Shown here piece by piece: positions 6,954-49,829 of a stretch of 64,000 nucleotides of DNA. Position numbers and translations under genes: made by a program. Within the stretch, counting starts at the first letter, position 1, and each line of letters begins with the position of its first letter. Origin of the DNA: an uncultured bacterium (GTDB taxonomy: Bacteria; Desulfobacterota_D; UBA1144; Nemesobacterales; UBA2774); assembly GCA_963825135.1 (NCBI GenBank), contig CAWGRW010000009.1, positions 704,001 to 768,000 on the forward strand. The letters are read 5' to 3'. The notes under the pieces were generated by a model. The model did not search any database. It saw nothing but the letters and a program-made list of their open reading frames with translations, and was not told where the DNA came from.

Positions 6954-7391
6954 ATGCCGTCTGATTCCGACAAAGACCTCATACTCGAAGTGAACGAAAG
7001 GTTCTACAGGGCCCTCGGCGCAAGAGACCTTGAGCTCATGGACACTGTGTTCGTCCACGACGAGAGGGCCGGCTGCACTCATCCGGGCTGGGTAATGCTC
7101 AGGGGATGGGAAGCCATAAGACAGAGCTGGGAGAACGTCTTTGACCCCGAAGACAGGCTCGGCATAAAGCTCCACAATATCACCGTCGACATCAAAGGGG
7201 ACGCCGCGTACGTTACCTGCATTCAGGAGCTGACCTACATCAGGCGTGACCCCGTAATGATGAACGTCTCCATATCGACGAATATTTTTGAAAAAACCGC
7301 AGCGGGCTGGCTGATGGTAATCCACCACGCTTCGCCCGTGCCTTTTGTCACGGAAGAAAAAGCGGAAAAAGAAGAAGATAATTTGCAGTAG
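6954..7391 (+). CDS. NTF2/SnoaL-like domain protein
   Basis: NERFYRAL, CTHPGW, GWEAIRQSW, TNIFEK, WLMVIHHASP. Confidence 0.85.
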   Translation: MPSDSDKDLILEVNERFYRALGARDLELMDTVFVHDERAGCTHPGWVMLRGWEAIRQSWENVFDPEDRLGIKLHNITVDIKGDAAYVTCIQELTYIRRDPVMMNVSISTNIFEKTAAGWLMVIHHASPVPFVTEEKAEKEEDNLQ

Positions 7392-7418
7392 GGGTCCTGA
7401 AAAAATCCGTTTCCGGAT

Positions 7419-8165
7419 TCACGAATCCCCGTTGTGGTTGAAGTGGAGTCCGCACTCCTTGTCGGAATCGTTTTCCCACCACCAGCGCCCCGCCCTCTCG
7501 TCTTCCCCGGGTTTCACGGCGCGCGTGCAGGGGGCGCAGCCTATGCTCGGGTAGCCCATGTCGTGGAGCTTGTTGTAGGGGACGCTGCGCTCCTTTATGT
7601 AATCCCACACCTGCTTGCTCGTCCAGTCAACTAACGGATTTATCTTTAATATGCCGCCGTTGAGCTCGTCTATCTCGAACATTTTGGCCTCGGCCCTCGT
7701 CTCCAGCTGGTCCCGCCTTATGGATGTGATCCAGCCGTCCATACCGGAGAGGTAGCGTTTGAGCGGTCTGACTTTTCTGATTTCGCAGCAGAGTCTCCTG
7801 TTTTCCTTCCCTTTATAAAACAAGTTAACCCCGTGCTCGAGCACCATTTCCTCGACCTCGGACTTCTCCGGGAACACGACCTCTATCCGTGCCCCGTATC
7901 TTTTTCTGACCTCGTCCATGACGTCGTAGGTCTCCTGGTTGAGCCTGCCCGTATCGAGCGTAAATATCCTCGCGTCCCGGTTTAACGTCAGGAGCATATC
8001 TATGAGCACCATCCCCTGGGCCTGAAAGCTCGAAGCGAGCGCCACCCTAGGGTGTAGATTATCGAACGACCATTTAAGAATTTCTTCAGCCCCCCTGTCC
8101 TCGAACCTGACGTTCAGGTCCCTGACCTCGTCCGGGGTGAACATTCGTTTATGGCCGTCTTTCAC
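7419..8165 (-). CDS. cysH: Adenylyl-sulfate (APS/PAPS) reductase, [4Fe-4S] APS-type
   Basis: LDTG, CCEIRKVRP, GYPSIGCAPCT, RAGRWWWE, KECGLH; the CC plus CxxC cluster ligands are present. Start uncertain (see findings). Confidence 0.93.
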   Translation of the reverse strand: MKDGHKRMFTPDEVRDLNVRFEDRGAEEILKWSFDNLHPRVALASSFQAQGMVLIDMLLTLNRDARIFTLDTGRLNQETYDVMDEVRKRYGARIEVVFPEKSEVEEMVLEHGVNLFYKGKENRRLCCEIRKVRPLKRYLSGMDGWITSIRRDQLETRAEAKMFEIDELNGGILKINPLVDWTSKQVWDYIKERSVPYNKLHDMGYPSIGCAPCTRAVKPGEDERAGRWWWENDSDKECGLHFNHNGDS

Positions 8166-8248
8166 TCGCGATTTTTTACCGGCAGATCCTGATAAGCTGA
8201 TTTTTAATCACCTCTCCTATTTTGATGTCCCCATTCCTATTATATATG

Positions 8249-9262
8249 TTAATGACCGAAATTCCTGCTTATCATGGCCGCGACATCGTATCTGAAATAA
8301 AGGGAAGACAGGAAATACCCCATAGCCACGGCAATAAACGGTATGACAAACCAGAAGAACGCTATCCTCACTACGTGGCGGTTCTGGGCGGTGGCCGAGA
8401 ACCCCTGCTGAGCCAGGGAAAACCCTATTATACCGGACGTGACTATCTCCGCTAAGGACACAGGTACGCCGAAGAGCGAGGCAACGAGGATTATCGCGGC
8501 CCCAGTAAATTCAACCGAGATCGCCCTCAGTATGCAGATCTCCGTAATTTCCTTCCCGACGCTCTCAAGCACCCTCCCCCCGAAAAGCATTGCCCCGACA
8601 CCCATCGCCACGCCGGCCATGACGGCCCCCACGTTGGCGTTCATGAGCCCGAGGCCTACAAGAGGGCCGACCGAGTTGGCCGAATTGTTGGCCCCCGCGG
8701 AAAAAGCAACAAATACGCCTGAGATAGTTATCAGAATTGAGAGTATTCTATTTATACCCCCTTCCGAATACCGGGCGGTCAGAAACTGCAACGTTTTTAA
8801 ATATAGATACCTTGCAATGAGGTAATTCACCGCTAACGCCACGAGAGGCGTTATCACCCACCAGACTACTATCTCGAAAAATTTTTCGCTGTTGAGCGAT
8901 TTCGAATAAAGTCCGACCCCCACTATCGCGCAGACTATCGCGTGTGTCGTGGCCACGGGAACACGGGATATATTCGCCCAGGAAATGAAAATAATCGCGA
9001 TAATGAAGATGATTATGACGAGCCCTATGTGGGTCGAGAATATAGTGCCGGGCACGAGGCCGTTCCCGAGGGTCTTGATTACGGGCGTGCCCGCCAGAAG
9101 CGCTCCCAGGACCGCGAATATTGCGATCATCGCGGTCGCTTCCCTTTTAGTTCTCACCCCCGCGCCGTAAGCCGTGGCCATCGAAGCCGCCGAATTGTTA
9201 GCGCCTATGTTGAGCGCAAGAAATGCGGACAGAGCAATAGCTATAGGAAGGACGAAATCCAA
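8249..9262 (-). CDS. PiT-family anion permease, probable sulfate permease (CysP-like)
   Basis: Duplicated GANN motifs (IGANNSAASM, AGANNSANSVGP), many TM helices; directly upstream of cysH. Confidence 0.85.
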   Translation of the reverse strand: MDFVLPIAIALSAFLALNIGANNSAASMATAYGAGVRTKREATAMIAIFAVLGALLAGTPVIKTLGNGLVPGTIFSTHIGLVIIIFIIAIIFISWANISRVPVATTHAIVCAIVGVGLYSKSLNSEKFFEIVVWWVITPLVALAVNYLIARYLYLKTLQFLTARYSEGGINRILSILITISGVFVAFSAGANNSANSVGPLVGLGLMNANVGAVMAGVAMGVGAMLFGGRVLESVGKEITEICILRAISVEFTGAAIILVASLFGVPVSLAEIVTSGIIGFSLAQQGFSATAQNRHVVRIAFFWFVIPFIAVAMGYFLSSLYFRYDVAAMISRNFGH

Positions 9263-44216: not shown

Positions 44217-44558
44217 TCAGTCACCGGAACGGCATTCCTCACAGCTGCACAGCTCCCTCAGGAATTCGTACGTATAAATTCCCGTATCGTGCTTATCGTT
44301 CCAGCTGAACTTAAACGCGTACTGTCCGACGTGCTCGATACCGAGAGGCTTGACCGCCGGGGATTTGGTCCCGAGAGGGATAGTCTTTTTGAAAGGGAGC
44401 CTGCCGTTCTTACTCGCTTTCCGTAACTGCCTGCAGGTAGCGCAGGGGCATTCCTGCCGCAGGTCCTCGTACAGGTAAATACTCTCATGCCCGTCGTCCC
44501 ATAATATCCGTATCGCCGTATCGCTGAATTCCGTTACTTCCCCCGGTTTGCATTTCAT
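44217..44558 (-). CDS. DUF971/GBBH-like N-terminal Zn-binding protein
   Basis: WDDGHESIY, LRQECPCATC, VGQYA, WNDKHDTGIYTYEFLR; ATG at 44558 with a GGGG SD. Confidence 0.85.
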   Translation of the reverse strand: MKCKPGEVTEFSDTAIRILWDDGHESIYLYEDLRQECPCATCRQLRKASKNGRLPFKKTIPLGTKSPAVKPLGIEHVGQYAFKFSWNDKHDTGIYTYEFLRELCSCEECRSGD

Positions 44559-44715
44559 AGATATTTCCCCCTTATCGTAGGACTCGCGAACAGCGCCTGT
44601 ATATTGTACCGAATTCCTCGGCGGATATTTTCTATCGACGCGGATATTTAATAATTTCGGGATATAAACTGTTTCGTTGACTTTTTTTGCCCGAAAATTG
44701 TATAATCCATTCCTG

Positions 44716-45468
44716 ATGAAAAAAGACGCCGCGGGGACGGTAGCGGAGTGGATCAGAGAGACCCGGAAAATCATAGTCCTTACGGGGTATGAATTATCGG
44801 CCGAGTGCGGCCTGCCCGATTTTTCGGATCCCGGACTAAACCCTCATATCAGGGATTTCAGGGAGAAACGGGACGTAAGGGCGGGGTATTGGGCGAAGAT
44901 AACGGACATATACCCGTCTCTCCTGAGCGCCGAGCCCGGTCCCGGCCACCGGGCGATAGTGGAGATGGAAATGCTCGGGAACCTGGACTGTGTATTTACG
45001 CAGAGCGCGGACGGGCTCCATCACCGCGCCGGAAGCACCACGGTCATTGAGCTCAACAGCAGCATCCAATGGATTACTTGCCCCGGCTGCGGCAAGGATT
45101 ATTCGATTGACGAAATCATGAGCATGCTCGAAAAAAGCGCCGGAGTACCCGCCTGCAGGGAATGCGGGAGCGACCAGCTGAAACCCGGGATTTCATTCCC
45201 CGGGCAGCCTCCGCCGCACTGGGAAGCGCGGGAGGCATGGATGAGGCTCCACAACACCGACCTATTTCTCATCGCCGGAGCCTCACTCGACAATGAGCCC
45301 GCAGCCTCGTACCCGTTCGAAGCCAAGGAAAATAACGCCAGGGTAGTCATCATAAGCGAACGTGAAAGCCCGGCAGACGACTACGTAGATGCGGTCATAT
45401 ACGGCAAGCCGGGCCAGATACTGAATTACATTGTAAAGAAGGTTAAGGACAGCATTACCATCTCCTGA
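44716..45468 (+). CDS. Sir2/CobB-family protein with degenerate catalytic motifs
   Basis: Sirtuin motifs recognisable (LTG.ELSAECGLPDF, TQSADGLHHRAGS, CPGC/CREC, LKP, GASL...PAA) but catalytic HG is replaced by NS. Confidence 0.85.
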   Translation: MKKDAAGTVAEWIRETRKIIVLTGYELSAECGLPDFSDPGLNPHIRDFREKRDVRAGYWAKITDIYPSLLSAEPGPGHRAIVEMEMLGNLDCVFTQSADGLHHRAGSTTVIELNSSIQWITCPGCGKDYSIDEIMSMLEKSAGVPACRECGSDQLKPGISFPGQPPPHWEAREAWMRLHNTDLFLIAGASLDNEPAASYPFEAKENNARVVIISERESPADDYVDAVIYGKPGQILNYIVKKVKDSITIS

Positions 45469-45541: not shown

Positions 45542-47026
45542 ATGGCTGAGGAAAAACCGCTCATACAAGACGTAAAAAGGTACGTATCCAATACGGACAA
45601 GGATATTTACACGGTCAGCAACATCCCGGAAGAGGTCATAGCCGTCATATTCGCCTACGTGAGCAGGAGCCCGAAAGGCTTCAGGGAGAATATCGGGGCG
45701 GTCATTCAGGAAGAGGAGCTCGGCAGGGACAGGGCCTCGAAGTTCCACGAGAAATGGGTGCTAAACTACGGACACGCTTCCGTGGCGGAACACGCCGCCG
45801 TGCACGTGGGCATCGAGAGGGTGTCCCGGCTGTTCTCGTCAATACTCGAGCTGTCAAACGAGTATCTATCGTTCACGGAGTATTCCCAGAGGTATCAGAG
45901 ACCGTCGAGAGGGGATTTTTATATACCGGGCGAGCTCGACAGGGCCCCCGCTCTTAAGAAAGATTATATAAAGCTCAACGACGGCCTCTATACCGTATAT
46001 GCCGGGCTGAATGAAAAGCTCTTCGAGCATTTAAAGAAAACGGAGCCCGCGCCCGAGGGTGCGGATGAGAAGGCGCATTCGAGGGCGCTCGAAAAGATCG
46101 CGTTCGAGGACGCCCGGTACGCCCTTACGCTCGCTACTTTCACGAATCTCGGCATGACCGCGAACGCGAGAGCGATCGAGGACTCGCTCACGAAGCTCCT
46201 TTCGAATAAGTACGCGGAGGTCAGGAGCCGGGCTCGGGAAATAAAGGATGAAGTGCGGTTTTCCGTGCCCACGCTCGTAAAATATGCGAATGAAAACAGA
46301 TACCTCAAAGAGACGAGAGAGGAACTCCTCAAAACTGCGGGCTCGCTGACCGTGCGAAACTATACCGGGTGGTCAACCGAAGGCCCGGCCGTTAACCTCC
46401 TGGACTGGACGGGTAAGGGTTCTCCCGCTCCCGAAGAAGCGGCAGTAGATAAAATGATCAAAGCCATACTGTTCGAGCACTCGGACTCAAGCTATGAGGA
46501 GATAGACGACACGCTCAAGGGGCGGGACCCCGCCTCAAAGCTCGCAATCCTGAAAAAATCACTCGAGAAGCTCGGGAAATACGATAACCCCGTAAACGCC
46601 CTCAGGCTCGTCGGCTACGAGGCCGAGTTCGTCATAAGCGAGGCGTGCTGGCACCAGCTCCTCCGGCACAGGAAGACGGACTGGATCTACAAGGACCCCT
46701 CGGTATCGCACGGCATCACCGTACCGCCGAACATAGAAAACGCGGGGATTGCGGATATGCTCGTAAGGGCAGCCGGGGAGAGTGAGAAACTTTACGCGAT
46801 GCTGATGAATGAAAATTTATCCGAGACCGCGAGCTACGTCGTAACTAACGCTCACAACAGGCGCGTTCTCGGCAGCTTCAACCTCTGGGAGCTCTATCAC
46901 CTCATAAATTTAAGGATGTCCGAAGGGGCCCAGTGGGATATCAAGAACGTAACAGGGATGCTTGCCGAAGAGATAAGCAAACATCATCCGAACCTCGTAG
47001 CCCCCGCGCTGAAGAGGGTAAAATAG
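45542..47026 (+). CDS. thyX: Flavin-dependent thymidylate synthase, tandem two-domain type
   Basis: GHASVAEHA, VSR, EYSQRY, DARY in domain 1; QLLRHR, NLWELYHLINLR, AQWDI in domain 2; GAGGAG SD before ATG at 45542. Confidence 0.88.
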   Translation: MAEEKPLIQDVKRYVSNTDKDIYTVSNIPEEVIAVIFAYVSRSPKGFRENIGAVIQEEELGRDRASKFHEKWVLNYGHASVAEHAAVHVGIERVSRLFSSILELSNEYLSFTEYSQRYQRPSRGDFYIPGELDRAPALKKDYIKLNDGLYTVYAGLNEKLFEHLKKTEPAPEGADEKAHSRALEKIAFEDARYALTLATFTNLGMTANARAIEDSLTKLLSNKYAEVRSRAREIKDEVRFSVPTLVKYANENRYLKETREELLKTAGSLTVRNYTGWSTEGPAVNLLDWTGKGSPAPEEAAVDKMIKAILFEHSDSSYEEIDDTLKGRDPASKLAILKKSLEKLGKYDNPVNALRLVGYEAEFVISEACWHQLLRHRKTDWIYKDPSVSHGITVPPNIENAGIADMLVRAAGESEKLYAMLMNENLSETASYVVTNAHNRRVLGSFNLWELYHLINLRMSEGAQWDIKNVTGMLAEEISKHHPNLVAPALKRVK

Positions 47027-47649: not shown

Positions 47650-48819
47650 ATGGAAGACACCCCGTCGTTTCAGGACTTATTCAAATCACAGGTATATACG
47701 GTATCCGGGCTCACAGCGCGCATTAAAGAAGCGATCGAAGAGGAGGTCGGCTTCGAGCACGTGTGGGTCACGGGAGAGATCTCGAATTTCAAAGGAAACT
47801 ATACGAGCGGGCACTGGTATTTCTCGCTCAAGGATGAATCGAGTCAGATATCCGCTGTCTGCTTCAAATGGGCGAACCAATCGATAAAATACCTCCCCGA
47901 GAACGGCACGGAGGTCATTTGCTCGGGCCTCGTAGGGGTTTACGAGAAACAAGGGGTCTACCAGCTGAACGTTAAGGATATGGAGCCCAAGGGTGTCGGG
48001 GCTCAGGCTCTCGCGCTCGAACAGTTAAAAGAGAAACTCCTCGCCGAGGGACTATTCAGCCCGGAGAGAAAGCGCCCCCTGCCCTTCCTCCCCCGGAGGA
48101 TCGGCATTGTAACCTCCCCGACGGGAGCGGCGATAAAAGACATTCTTAAGGTCCTCGAAAGCAGGTTCCCCAACCTCGAAATAGTAATATCCCCGGCAAG
48201 GGTCCAGGGAGACGAAGCTCCCGGAGATATTATATCGTCCCTGAAGAAGCTTTACGGTATGTCCGGCCTGGACCTCATCATTCTGGCAAGAGGCGGGGGT
48301 TCCAAGGAAGACCTGCGTGCCTTCAACGACGAGGCGCTCGCGAGAGAGATAGTTAAATCCCCTGTGCCTGTCGTCTCCGCGGTCGGGCACGAAATAGACG
48401 TTACGATTGCCGACTTGGTCGCGGACGTAAGGGCGGCGACACCGTCGAACGCAGCCGAGATCGTGGTCAGGGAGAGGTCAGAGCTCCTTCAGGACCTGGC
48501 AGAGCTCGGCGGAAAACTGGCCTTCGCTCTTCAGAACCGGGTTGAATTCCACGCAAGGGAAATAGATCAGCTGCAGTCGGACATACTAAGGCTCTTTCAG
48601 ATAAAGTACGAGAGCGCCGTATCGGAGACGGGCGCGCTCGCAGGAAAGCTCGACGCTCTGAGTCCCCTCAAAGTGCTCGGCCGCGGATACAGCATCACGT
48701 ACAAGCTTCCGTCCATGAAGACGGTTAAGGATTCGAAGGAGCTTGCGAGCGGAGACAAAGTCCTGATCGCTTTTAACAGCGGAAAGGCCAGGTGCTCGGT
48801 CACGGAAACTGAAGACTAG
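47650..48819 (+). CDS. xseA: Exodeoxyribonuclease VII large subunit
   Basis: GEISN, SGHWYFSLKD, TSPTGAA, RGGGSKEDL, VGHEID, AATPS, LSPLKVLGRGY. Confidence 0.96.
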   Translation: MEDTPSFQDLFKSQVYTVSGLTARIKEAIEEEVGFEHVWVTGEISNFKGNYTSGHWYFSLKDESSQISAVCFKWANQSIKYLPENGTEVICSGLVGVYEKQGVYQLNVKDMEPKGVGAQALALEQLKEKLLAEGLFSPERKRPLPFLPRRIGIVTSPTGAAIKDILKVLESRFPNLEIVISPARVQGDEAPGDIISSLKKLYGMSGLDLIILARGGGSKEDLRAFNDEALAREIVKSPVPVVSAVGHEIDVTIADLVADVRAATPSNAAEIVVRERSELLQDLAELGGKLAFALQNRVEFHAREIDQLQSDILRLFQIKYESAVSETGALAGKLDALSPLKVLGRGYSITYKLPSMKTVKDSKELASGDKVLIAFNSGKARCSVTETED

Positions 48820-49829
48820 CCGAGAAGTAAGTTAAATTCAGGGGCTTCGATGAGCCTCGCTCCCGCGCTTCTGAGAAGACTTTCGGTCTCCCCCGCGGGC
48901 AGAGCATCGGTAATGATGTGCCTCACCCTGTTCCCCATGTCCATACCGAGCTTTTTCCCGGCTGGCCGGCCGTTTAAGCCCGAAAGGGACTTCCTGCATA
49001 ATTCCTCCAGGCCCGCTTTCGTCTCAAACAATACGGTCGGCATTACCTCGACTATATCCTGGTAGAAATCTTTCCTGCCTTCCGCAACCGCGGCCCTGCC
49101 CCCCCTGTAGAGAGTAAGATAGTTTATGAACTTCGAGAACGGGGTCGCGTCCGTCAAATAGGAAAAGGTCTGGTCCTCCGCGTCTAACCCGGAGCACCTG
49201 AGAGACACATTCCGGAGGGCATCCATCAAGCTGCCCTGGGAGACCTCGGTCGGGTGCGGTTTATCCGGACCCGGAGATAAAAAAAGCGCAGCCGGAAAAT
49301 CAGCTTCTACATTTTTATATACAGCGGAAAGCTCGTCCTCGAGCTTTTTTCTTTTCATAAGCCCGAATTTAAGGACCGCCCTGAAGTTCAGGACCTTCTC
49401 GCCGCTTATCTTTGCGTCCGGGAAGACTATAATTCTCTCGACGCTCGTCATCCCGTGAAGAGAATTCAGAACACCTTCCATCGAGGGACTCTGCTCTATT
49501 AGTATCAGCTTTGCATGGAGATCTTCAGCCGCTCCGGCAATCCGCTCGGCGCTTTCATCCGGGGACAGCGGAACAACGATTCCGCCGAGATGAAAAACCG
49601 CGATCTCGGAGGAGATCGCTTCGAGCCTGTTCGAAGAGACGACGAGCGCCCTGTCCCCCCTCCCGAACCCCAGGTCGTGGAAAAAGGCCGCTATATTCTT
49701 TACTTTGCGGTCGAAGTCGAGCCAGGTAATTTGTTTCCAGCTCCATCCGTCCCGCCGCTGGTAGAGGAGCTTCGTACCGTGCTCCTTTACTCGATTTTGC
49801 AGAAGTTCTGGTATAGTCTTTTCGCTCAT
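48816..49829 (-). CDS. Truncated, degenerate AMP-binding (long-chain acyl-CoA ligase-like) protein
   Basis: N-terminus like FadD15/ACSL (WKQITW, LGFGRGDR, SSNRLE, GGIVVP); no TSGTTG loop and no C-terminal domain. Confidence 0.7.
   Translation of the reverse strand: MSEKTIPELLQNRVKEHGTKLLYQRRDGWSWKQITWLDFDRKVKNIAAFFHDLGFGRGDRALVVSSNRLEAISSEIAVFHLGGIVVPLSPDESAERIAGAAEDLHAKLILIEQSPSMEGVLNSLHGMTSVERIIVFPDAKISGEKVLNFRAVLKFGLMKRKKLEDELSAVYKNVEADFPAALFLSPGPDKPHPTEVSQGSLMDALRNVSLRCSGLDAEDQTFSYLTDATPFSKFINYLTLYRGGRAAVAEGRKDFYQDIVEVMPTVLFETKAGLEELCRKSLSGLNGRPAGKKLGMDMGNRVRHIITDALPAGETESLLRSAGARLIEAPEFNLLLG

Follow-up and report, generated by a model that had tools for sequence, protein, structure and literature searches.

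Sirtuins are, to our knowledge, treated as a uniformly catalytic family. In the mechanism given in PMC7696986, the conserved histidine acts as general base, and the FGExL loop forms a beta-staple with the substrate. It is known that a duplicated enzyme, once catalysis is lost, can be retained as a subunit for binding or regulation (bioRxiv 10.1101/2025.10.31.685773). The short sirtuins of the Sir2Af2/Sir2Tm type (CobB-like) resemble the protein analyzed here, pSir (pseudo-sirtuin), in length, in the fold with a Rossmann domain and a four-Cys zinc ribbon, and in sequence (30-37% identity); the best sequence match of pSir is 1ma3 and the best structure matches are 1yc2/1s7g. We analyzed the pSir gene in a DNA stretch of 64,000 nucleotides (hereafter, the window). 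The order that carries pSir belongs to the uncultured Dadabacteria, and its bacteria are widespread. On the whole, and with some reserve, we favour the reading that pSir is a non-catalytic binding or regulatory module, with dTMP synthesis as its likeliest context.

The pSir gene is an open frame of 250 amino acids plus stop at 44716..45468 on the forward strand. It starts with the ATG at 44716, and M1 is at least 90% conserved in the clade alignment (94 rows). A TTG at 44677, which would extend the protein to 263 amino acids, was rejected as the start: the ATG is where translation begins across the family, and a promoter-like site falls within this stretch. The promoter-like site (44677..44706, forward strand; TTGACT, 18 nt, TATAAT) scored 11/12 in a consensus scan, as a pattern match only, and 9 nt lie between its end and the ATG.

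Pfam SIR2 (PF02146) matched residues 27-193 of pSir with 84.7 bits (cut-off 24). The AF2 model of pSir (pLDDT 93.7, pTM 0.90) matched Sir2Af2 (1yc2/1s7g) in Foldseek with a TM of 0.85, and HMMER aligned pSir with Sir2Af2 (1ma3) at an E of 1.3e-37. By its Pfam score, its Rossmann domain and its four-Cys zinc-binding small domain, pSir is a member of the SIR2 superfamily at the fold level. The zinc ribbon (C122-x-x-C125 and C147-x-x-C150; 45079..45165, forward strand) has four Cys residues that are invariant in the 94-row clade alignment, and the first Cys pair is followed by G126-K-D-Y129, which is clade-specific relative to 109 canonical sirtuins. Thus, the open 250-amino-acid frame and the CPGC/CREC zinc site described in the earlier note are both present. 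All seven sirtuin models of NCBIfam (CobB/deacylase) listed for pSir were below their cut-offs, the best being NF040867 (164 vs 320 bits). The ESM Atlas search with pSir returned only ordinary SIR2 clusters and no new lead. According to the source names of the matches, the automatic annotation of pSir is "NAD-dependent deacetylase", and this label is probably wrong across the whole order.

The motifs were placed by a HMMER alignment to 1ma3 and an alignment with 22 canonical sirtuins, and conservation was compared between the 94-member clade and the 109 nearest canonical sirtuins. In the alignment to 1ma3, TGYELS (residues 23-28; 44782..44799, forward strand) stands in place of the nucleotide-binding motif TGAGIS. 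Glu26, in place of the second Gly of GAGIS, was found in 92/97 clade rows, and Gly in 99% of the 109 canonical sirtuins. We take the replaced Gly to be the one that faces the dinucleotide phosphates. PDFS (residues 34-37; 44815..44826, forward strand) replaces PDFR, and the cofactor-binding loop after it is about 8 residues shorter than in the 22 aligned canonical sirtuins. Position 37 is S, T, L, A, Y, G or M in the clade and never Arg, the residue of 96% of canonical sirtuins. TQSAD (residues 95-99; 44998..45012, forward strand) is in place of TQNID; position 97 is T, A, S or C and never Asn in the 97 rows, as compared with Asn in 100% of canonical sirtuins. At the catalytic site, Asn114-Ser115 (45055..45060, forward strand) replaces His-Gly: the window encodes ELNS at residues 112-115 versus the canonical ELHG, and the Asn114 codon is AAC (45055-45057). 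Ser214 (45355..45357, forward strand) is in place of the late Asn, with Ser in 78/97 and Asn in 13/97 of the clade rows and Asn in 92% of canonical sirtuins. Every substitution listed in the earlier note (TGYELS, PDFS with a short loop, TQSAD, ELNS at 45055, and late Asn to Ser) was placed by these alignments.

Residues 156-175 (45181..45240, forward strand) comprise the FGE loop, which was also remodelled, and the next helix. The FGExL substrate beta-staple loop is absent from pSir, and S-F-P-G-Q is invariant in the clade instead. Position 162 is Phe in 94% of canonical sirtuins vs Pro in 100% of the clade; this change had escaped the earlier note. Canonical sirtuins have 48 positions with at least 80% conservation, and 14 of these have changed or become relaxed in the clade, positions 25, 26, 37, 97, 114, 115, 162, 193 and 214 among them. 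Positions 26, 192 and 215 are enriched in acidic residues.

pSir lacks the NAD+-binding motifs of deacylases (GAGIS, PxFR, QNxD and the late Asn) as well as the general-base His followed by Gly. Across the 97 clade rows, position 114 is Asn (60), His (17), Tyr (8), Leu (6), Cys (3) or Phe (2), and position 115 is Ser in 82 and Gly in 9. In the 99 motif rows listed, wherever this His occurs, the second Gly of GAGIS, Arg in PDFR and Asn in QNID are all missing. Because these residues are missing from the His rows, the His-bearing members of the clade do not, as far as the motifs indicate, rescue catalysis. On the clade tree, the minimum numbers of changes were 20 at position 114, 23 at 97, 17 at 37, 31 at 25 and 35 at 193. 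Since the cofactor and catalytic residues are replaced and several of these positions change freely, NAD+-dependent deacylase activity of pSir is predicted to be impossible.

The 94 clustered relatives (44-97% identical) fall into a single, monophyletic clade (SH-aLRT 100), with a stem of 0.82 substitutions per site vs a median branch of 0.07. In a profile search of 1.84 billion proteins, scores dropped at the clade boundary from 307 bits to 188 bits, and the nearest non-clade relatives possessed the full canonical motif set. GYE/QSAD/NS had been suggested as a possible signature of a conserved clade; a discrete conserved clade does exist, but the letters Y25, S97, A98 and N114 of the window protein are not conserved within it. 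The conserved signature is G-x-E-L-S, absence of Arg37, T-Q-[TAS]-T-D, Ser115, S-F-P-G-Q and Ser214.

A clade-level match (at least 317 bits) was found in 98/101 genomes of the order, including genomes of 1.2-1.6 Mb, and no internal stop was found in pSir in any listed clade-level match of these 98 genomes. The gene is single-copy and vertically inherited. The median dN/dS of pSir was 0.091 (79 pairs), a value far from 1, and those of ThyX and XseA were 0.110 and 0.074. Thus, pSir is not a decaying copy, because it belongs to one conserved clade, its dN/dS is about that of the housekeeping neighbours and it occurs in 98/101 genomes. The loss of many catalytic residues at once would be expected of a functionless decaying copy or of a sequencing or assembly artefact. 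The low dN/dS, the 27 columns that are invariant over 94 sequences with identity down to 44%, the intact frame in every listed match and the confident AF2 model all speak against this explanation, and its probability is practically negligible. That a sequencing error is unlikely, as the earlier note held, agrees with the recurrence of the pattern in 94-97 independent cluster representatives and in 98 genomes. The same note had set against its own reading the case that orthologues keep HG while this copy drifts. His and Gly do occur in 17/97 and 9/97 rows, respectively, but the dN/dS does not fit drift. As an enzyme homologue that lacks its catalytic residues and is under purifying selection, pSir has the operational features of a pseudoenzyme. 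We consider it very probable, from the sequence comparisons, that pSir is a pseudoenzyme under selection.

The genome of the window also encodes a canonical sirtuin of 250 amino acids, which has all motifs and is 29% identical to pSir. The two genes are about 175 kb apart and are not linked. In most genomes of the order, there are additional sirtuin matches of lower score (about 130-143 bits). In the sister group, there are sirtuin matches at the canonical level and pSir is absent. Because its own genome keeps a separate canonical sirtuin, pSir is a paralogue of the ordinary bacterial sirtuin and not a replacement. The conserved clade, the low dN/dS and the separate canonical sirtuin support the core proposal of the earlier note, namely a probably non-deacylating sirtuin kept for another purpose.

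What the clade conserves suggests where selection acts. Relative to canonical sirtuins, 39 positions have gained conservation of 90% or more, including Glu26 and positions within residues 156-175. Residues 156-175 are the most conserved block of the clade, in which W169, E170, R172, E173 and W175 are invariant; these positions are variable in the 109 canonical sirtuins. No change was counted on the clade tree at positions 162, 169 and 175, and the AF2 model has a helix at residues 168-178. We propose that a paralogue of the ordinary bacterial sirtuin became a pseudoenzyme that retained its Rossmann domain and its zinc ribbon with four cysteines. The NAD+-holding residues of canonical sirtuins are replaced in it (Glu for the second Gly of GAGIS, with loss of Arg in PDFR, Asn in QNID and the late Asn), as are the general-base His-Gly and the Phe of FGE. 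Selection now acts on Glu26, the rebuilt cofactor loop (42-67), Trp119 and the G-K-D-Y turn of the zinc ribbon, and most strongly on the S-F-P-G-Q loop and the helix within residues 156-175. The old active-site cleft and the adjacent surface appear to have been rebuilt as a putative binding site; what is said of the cleft and surface is based on the alignment to known sirtuins and the secondary structure of the model. Since part of the old nucleotide pocket is still conserved in the clade (T23, G24, S28, Q96, D99, H102, G188 and S190), pSir could still bind a nucleotide. Judging from the titles of the structures 1m2j and 2h4h, ADP-ribose or NAD is still bound by sirtuins in which the His was mutated to Asn or Tyr.

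The same pocket residues bear on an alternative, in which pSir is an enzyme with altered chemistry. Its rebuilt pocket would accommodate NAD(P)(H), ADP-ribose or a flavin as nucleotide cofactor in a novel manner, and pSir would catalyse or assist a reaction, for example the delivery of reducing equivalents to the flavin of ThyX. Besides the partly conserved pocket, this alternative could explain the invariant polar residues S160, Q164 and H168 in the cleft loop and the adjacency of the gene to ThyX, since ThyX enzymes depend on NADPH and FAD. A weak Pfam match of pSir to TPP_enzyme_M (FAD/ADP-binding domain; E 0.018, below cut-off) points in the same direction. There is also a precedent: class M sirtuins without the catalytic His have another NAD-dependent activity, according to PMC4518038. 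However, the same paper describes an absolutely conserved Gln137 and a retained Asn118 in class M, whereas the old catalytic position of pSir is unconserved (six residues, at least 20 changes) and the Asn of QNID is never present in the clade. Furthermore, Glu stands where a Gly presumably faces the dinucleotide phosphates, and the acidic positions 26, 192 and 215 would disfavour a diphosphate. We regard altered chemistry as unlikely.

The neighbours of the gene are a DUF971 gene, ThyX, a pentapeptide protein and XseA. The DUF971 (GBBH-like_N) gene is divergent (44217..44564, reverse strand; 115 amino acids; Pfam PF06155, 94.5 bits) and was found in 37/49 genome loci. The most persistent neighbour is a tandem (two-domain) ThyX-type thymidylate synthase of 494 amino acids with two Pfam Thy1 stretches (45542..47026, forward strand), which lies 73 nt downstream of pSir and scores 88.3 against NCBIfam thyX (cut-off 87.9). 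The two Thy1 stretches are the only Thy1 matches in this genome, and ThyA was not found in it. The tandem ThyX gene is downstream on the same strand in 47/49 genome loci, with a gap of at most 300 nt in 40 of the 47, and the adjacency persists in 8 loci in which neither DUF971 nor the pentapeptide gene was found. pSir was found in 60 of the 67 metagenome ThyX loci that have at least 900 nt upstream. Among 120 genomes of the phylum, pSir and tandem ThyX are both present in 98 and both absent in 22, and the sister group without pSir has an ordinary single-domain ThyX in the five genomes sampled. Because pSir is directly upstream of the only thymidylate synthase found in the genome and has the same distribution, dTMP synthesis is the likeliest candidate for its functional context.

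The linkage is not strict. One or two other ORFs lie between the two genes in 6 loci, and a promoter-like site lies between them in the window. Linkage is broken with both genes kept in two genomes where they are on separate contigs (G016 and G017); in another genome (G025), 5.5 kb separate them and they are on opposite strands. In a genome locus (L040) and a metagenome locus (L124), the fetched flank contained just one gene of the pair. No sirtuin was found near distant tandem ThyX genes (42-48% identical) in 6 loci. The mirror-tree test gave no co-evolution specific to pSir and ThyX (partial r(pSir, ThyX given XseA) = -0.23, 21 loci). Complex prediction for tandem ThyX and pSir, run without controls, gave scores of 0.01 and 0.00 vs a mark of 0.32, which speak neither for nor against binding. 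The link to ThyX is one of position and co-occurrence in one lineage and hence counts as a single event in evolution, and a functional tie between pSir and tandem ThyX is possible but doubtful. In its most specific form, which we think improbable, pSir would be a dedicated non-catalytic partner that docks on the pseudo-tetramer of the tandem ThyX of this order and tunes dTMP synthesis. Docking would occur through the invariant S-F-P-G-Q loop and the W-E-x-R-E-x-W helix. For tuning, the rebuilt cleft might sense a ligand (a nucleotide or a redox compound), or pSir might control the access of the reductant to the ThyX flavin.

The lack of a ThyX-specific signal in the mirror-tree test would also suit a reader or decoy of the acylation system, which binds acyl-lysine or unmodified peptides, the canonical paralogue or its substrates, and modulates deacylation with no catalysis of its own. 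pSir would then have no tie to ThyX, and the adjacency would be inherited gene order. The canonical sirtuin in the same genome and the weaker matches in most genomes of the order would provide a system to modulate, and the sirtuin cleft is retained with Pro195 of the substrate-facing strand still conserved. We take the clade positions corresponding to His, Val160, Phe162 and Val193 to be those that line the acyl-lysine tunnel in Sir2Tm. These positions are replaced or hypervariable in the clade: the His position is variable, Val160 is Ser, Phe162 is Pro and Val193 has 35 changes. In addition, the FGExL staple motif is rewritten, the canonical sirtuin is unlinked, and the sister group has sirtuin matches at the canonical level yet no pSir. 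Pseudoenzymes that regulate active relatives or metabolic enzymes are documented (bioRxiv 10.1101/2025.10.31.685773). We give this explanation only a small probability, and among the roles offered in the earlier note, the acyl-lysine reader is the least favoured.

In a full-text search of the literature, neither pseudo-sirtuin nor equivalent phrasings were found, and "inactive Sir2" or "inactive sirtuin" referred to yeast or other eukaryotic proteins or to unrelated topics. The search found nothing that links ThyX with a pSir-like sirtuin, papers naming both being unrelated by title and abstract opening, and nothing relevant on tandem ThyX or on Dadabacteria. As a non-catalytic module, pSir would be a natural example of a sirtuin fold reused for binding after loss of the cofactor and catalytic residues. 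If the ThyX link is true, flavin-dependent thymidylate synthesis has a hitherto unknown control layer or partner. As a dedicated partner, pSir would be the first case of a sirtuin that became a subunit of an enzyme of nucleotide metabolism, and ThyX would have its first known accessory protein.

Compared with the Sir2Af2/Sir2Tm type, pSir does not possess the second Gly of GAGIS, the Arg of PDFR, the Asn of QNID, His-Gly, the Phe of FGE or the late Asn; its cofactor loop is about 8 residues shorter, and 39 positions are newly conserved. Defence SIR2 NADases (Thoeris ThsA, DSR and the like) share the SIR2 superfamily and a non-deacylase role with pSir. However, they need NAD+ binding, which seems unlikely in pSir, and pSir is a single-copy, vertically inherited gene among housekeeping chromosomal genes. 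PADLOC assigned 0 families to pSir and three neighbours, and a defence-system reading was rejected because there is no PADLOC model and the surroundings are housekeeping. The class M sirtuins (SirTM), which are macrodomain-linked protein ADP-ribosyltransferases, have, like pSir, the sirtuin fold and a zinc domain without the catalytic His. In SirTM, according to PMC4518038, the His is an absolutely conserved Gln, the Asn is kept and NAD+ is bound in the usual way, whereas pSir has lost the Asn and shows no constraint at the His position. The features that this source gives for class M (Gln for His, the Asn, and a shared operon with macrodomain and GcvH-L genes) are absent from pSir, and no macrodomain, GcvH-like or lipoate-ligase match was found in the six neighbouring genes scanned. 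In Thermus thermophilus, an inactive alanine-dehydrogenase homologue regulates a CoA transferase (bioRxiv 10.1101/2025.10.31.685773), and the same principle is proposed for pSir. The T. thermophilus pseudoenzyme, as described there, still binds NAD(H), and experiments have shown its partner, whereas pSir is of another family and its ligand and partner are putative.

The pseudo-sirtuin (pSir) is encoded by an open frame of 250 codons at positions 44716-45468 of the forward strand. A TTG located 39 nt upstream, which would yield a protein of 263 aa, was considered as the start and rejected: the family alignment begins at the ATG, and M1 is at least 90% conserved. A promoter-like site (TTGACT-18 nt-TATAAT) was located by pattern matching, and its end lies 9 nt ahead of the ATG. 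In the segment 44677-44715, no Shine-Dalgarno-like purine run was seen between the -10 box and the ATG. Little or no leader may therefore be present on the pSir mRNA.

pSir scored 84.7 bits against Pfam SIR2 (cut-off 24), and its closest solved structure by sequence was Sir2Af2 (1ma3; E 1.3e-37). The AlphaFold model, with 94 relatives as input (mean pLDDT 93.7, pTM 0.90), matched the structures of Sir2Af2 and Sir2Tm at TM 0.81-0.87. By sequence and by modelled fold, pSir is a sirtuin. It fell far short of every NCBIfam deacylase model; the best score was 164 bits, where 320 would be needed.

The substitutions were placed by HMMER alignment to 1ma3 and by A3, an alignment of pSir with 22 canonical sirtuins (those with ordinary catalytic motifs) and the canonical paralogue of its own genome. 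The changes listed in the earlier note were all confirmed: TGAGIS is TGYELS (residues 23-28), PDFR is PDFS (34-37) with the next loop about 8 residues shorter, TQNID is TQSAD (95-99), ELHG is ELNS (112-115; Asn codon at 45055), and the late Asn is Ser214. The zinc site was also as described, with both cysteine pairs intact. A further change, beyond that list, is the Phe of the FGE-loop to Pro162.

Among 5.8 billion clustered proteins searched, 96 cluster representatives were close to pSir, with 46-97% identity and in most cases a length of 250 aa; the next matches were two canonical sirtuins at 32-35% identity. In a profile search of 1.84 billion representatives, clade members scored 341 and 307 bits, after which the scores fell to 188 bits; the proteins below this drop possess the full canonical motif set. 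The 94 full-length members formed one clade (SH-aLRT 100, tree with 16 canonical outgroups); its stem measured 0.82 substitutions per site, and the median branch 0.07. For pSir, the median of pairwise dN/dS (Nei-Gojobori, 79 pairs, dS 0.05-1.5) was 0.091 (interquartile range 0.069-0.126); at the same loci ThyX gave 0.110, XseA 0.074, the DUF971 gene 0.102 and the pentapeptide gene 0.131. A scan of 120 genomes from the phylum gave matches at clade level, with scores of at least 317 bits, in 98 of the 101 from the window's order, including genomes of 1.2-1.6 Mb; the three without a match are 59%, 80% and 83% complete. In the sister group, none of 19 genomes had a clade-level match, and the best matches were at the level of canonical sirtuins or absent. 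No internal stop was present in any clade-level match listed. pSir is retained across the order, beside a canonical paralogue: in its own genome, a 250-aa sirtuin with all motifs intact, 29% identical to pSir, lies about 175 kb away. Since the clade, dN/dS, order-wide presence and intact frames agree, we rejected the drifting copy, and decay or artefact is extremely improbable.

Conservation was then compared between the 94 clade members and the 109 nearest canonical sirtuins. The canonical set has 48 positions with conservation of 80% or more. At 14 of these, the clade shows replacement or relaxation (25, 26, 31, 33, 37, 75, 97, 114, 115, 162, 193, 214, 218 and 224). The former catalytic His site, 114, is N in 60 of 97 rows, H in 17, Y in 8, L in 6, C in 3 and F in 2. 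The minimum number of changes on the tree was at least 20 at position 114, 23 at 97, 17 at 37, 31 at 25 and 35 at 193. The earlier note had asked whether the rewritten motifs define a conserved clade under purifying selection: the clade and the selection stood, whereas positions 25, 97 and 114 vary freely. It had also named, as refutation, orthologues that keep HG while this copy drifts; the dN/dS is not near 1, and all 17 His-keeping members lack the second Gly of GAGIS, the Arg of PDFR and the Asn of QNID. The sirtuin fold and zinc site are kept, and NAD+ and catalytic residues are systematically lost, with constraint relaxed at exactly those sites and strong elsewhere.

At 39 positions, conservation reaches 90% or more in the clade and not in canonical sirtuins. 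They include Glu26 (at the site of the second Gly), six residues of the region where the cofactor loop was rebuilt (Asn42, Ile45, Arg49, Tyr58, Tyr66, Pro67), Trp119, the Gly126-Lys-Asp-Tyr129 segment of the zinc ribbon, and a block at 156-175 with an invariant S-F-P-G-Q loop and a helix (168-178) carrying invariant Trp169, Glu170, Arg172, Glu173 and Trp175. Positions 162, 169 and 175 show zero changes on the tree.

According to the review PMC7696986, the conserved His is the general base of sirtuins, and the FGExL loop is a beta-staple that grips the substrate and leads acetyl-lysine to a hydrophobic tunnel. Both are rewritten in pSir. The acyl-lysine tunnel of Sir2Tm is lined by His116, Val160, Phe162 and Val193, and the GAGIS glycines face the dinucleotide diphosphate. 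Given these roles, NAD+ binding and acyl-lysine reading by pSir both appear unlikely. Thr23, Gly24, Ser28, Gln96, Asp99, His102, Gly188 and Ser190 of the old pocket are still conserved, so some ligand binding in the cleft is possible. Given the free variation at 114, altered chemistry, with pSir as an enzyme or a cofactor carrier, seems improbable. Less probable still is a reader or decoy in the acylation system that has nothing to do with ThyX. We consider pSir very probably a pseudoenzyme: productive NAD+ binding and deacylation would be lost, the rebuilt cleft with the invariant loop and helix would form a binding surface, and the role would be non-catalytic. The central proposal of the earlier note, an intact sirtuin that no longer deacylates and is kept for another role, gains support from these comparisons.

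The wider window is ordinary chromosome, and the neighbours of pSir are housekeeping genes. Upstream are genes for RNase III, a SIMPL-family protein and, divergently, a DUF971 (GBBH-like_N) protein (44217-44564, reverse strand; 151-nt shared intergenic region). The DUF971 gene was present at 37 of the 49 loci, among them L046-L051, the six that diverge most, and Cys-rich motifs occur in its product as they do in pSir. Downstream on the same strand are a 494-aa protein with two Thy1 domains (tandem ThyX, 45542-47026), a pentapeptide-repeat protein and XseA. About 3.3 kb downstream of pSir is a short AMP-binding-enzyme ORF (336 aa; 48816-49829, reverse strand). The classic substrates of sirtuins include AMP-forming acyl-CoA synthetases; the occurrence of such ORFs near pSir may be coincidence. 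At L040, a genome locus, a 497-aa ORF (7003-8496, reverse strand), which we take from its motifs to be a putative AMP-binding enzyme, lies about 1.3 kb downstream of pSir, beyond a MerR-family gene.

Tandem ThyX scored just above the NCBIfam thyX cut-off (88.3 against 87.9). It gave the only Thy1 matches in its own genome (94% complete), where ThyA was not found. In A4, the tandem ThyX alignment, the N-half keeps H-x-S-x-x-E-H and S-F-T-E-Y-S-Q-R-Y and has no R-H-R, whereas Q-L-L-R-H-R and, late in the sequence, an L-R...A-Q-W-D block are kept in the C-half; none of these motifs varies among 37 sequences. Set against the canonical ThyX motif, the two halves look complementary. When one solved ThyX chain is aligned, its first part falls on the N-half and its last part on the C-half. 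This alignment and the motif split suggest a pseudo-tetramer with half as many active sites as usual. In three assemblies from the order, the tandem ThyX match has in-frame stops or is in pieces (G093:C7:120580-122025, TGA; G076:C6:762006-763485, TAA; G020:C17:863948-865405, TGA).

Adjacency of pSir to this ThyX is persistent. In 47 of 49 genome-assembly loci anchored on pSir, tandem ThyX follows on the same strand, with a gap of at most 300 nt in 40 of the 47; at L007, one of the seven loci with a wider gap, the best-aligned piece begins within the gene. The exceptions are L043, whose sequence stops 959 nt past pSir, and L040, the sole locus with full flanks and no ThyX beside pSir. Other neighbours are less persistent (DUF971 37/49, pentapeptide 33/49, XseA 32/49, SIMPL 30/49, RNase III 21/49). 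ThyX is kept in eight loci where neither the DUF971 nor the pentapeptide gene was found, three of which have less than 1.6 kb of upstream flank. ThyX served as the anchor for 80 metagenome loci; 900 nt or more of upstream sequence is available at 67 of them, and pSir is in 60 of these. Across the phylum, the 98 genomes with tandem ThyX are exactly those with pSir, and the remaining 22 lack both. Five sampled sister-group genomes possess single-domain ThyX (open frames 222-236 aa), and no ThyA was found in them.

Other results weigh against a link. The co-distribution is in effect one event because it lies within one lineage. In a mirror-tree test (21 loci), the partial correlation of pSir and ThyX distances controlled for XseA was r = -0.23; therefore, no specific co-evolution signal was obtained. 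At six loci, distantly related tandem ThyX genes that share this architecture, at 42-48% identity, had no sirtuin near them. Such distant genes of other organisms are at metagenome loci L133 and L136-L141; at L139, GC-rich by eye, ThyX with two Thy1 stretches lies between ORFs whose translations, also judged by eye, look like oligopeptide ABC ATPases. The linkage is broken in G016 and G017 (different contigs) and G025 (5.5 kb apart, opposite strands), and at L124 ThyX has no pSir within 3 kb. A second promoter-like site separates the two genes. In six loci of one subclade, a conserved 168-183-aa ORF lies between them on the same strand (L025 6613-7122; L027 2959-3465; L028 3564-4103; L031 6413-6964; L032 6042-6581; L033 2373-2906); its L025 copy had no Pfam match. 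On the opposite strand, an ORF of 145-185 aa is present at full length in L025, L027 and L033, SnoaL-like in the L025 copy, and as a 79-aa fragment in L031. A functional tie to tandem ThyX, with a role for pSir in dTMP synthesis, is a tentative proposal, less probable than not.

We conclude that pSir is a conserved, lineage-wide pseudo-sirtuin; its loss of function is well supported by sequence comparison, and any new function is putative. It is apparently undescribed: with the wordings tried, the full-text literature searched contained neither pseudo-sirtuin wording for a bacterial protein of this kind nor a paper linking ThyX with a pSir-like sirtuin. Closest among known proteins are the Sir2Af2/Sir2Tm-type sirtuins, which are short and occur in bacteria and archaea; pSir lacks the catalytic features that define them. 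pSir is not a defence SIR2, as no PADLOC defence model matched it or three of its neighbours. In class M sirtuins, according to PMC4518038, the His is an absolutely conserved Gln, the Asn is kept and NAD+ is bound normally, whereas in pSir position 114 is variable and Asn97 is gone. The proposed working mode of pSir would be similar to that of pseudoenzymes that regulate metabolic enzymes; one example is an inactive homologue of alanine dehydrogenase from Thermus (bioRxiv 10.1101/2025.10.31.685773).
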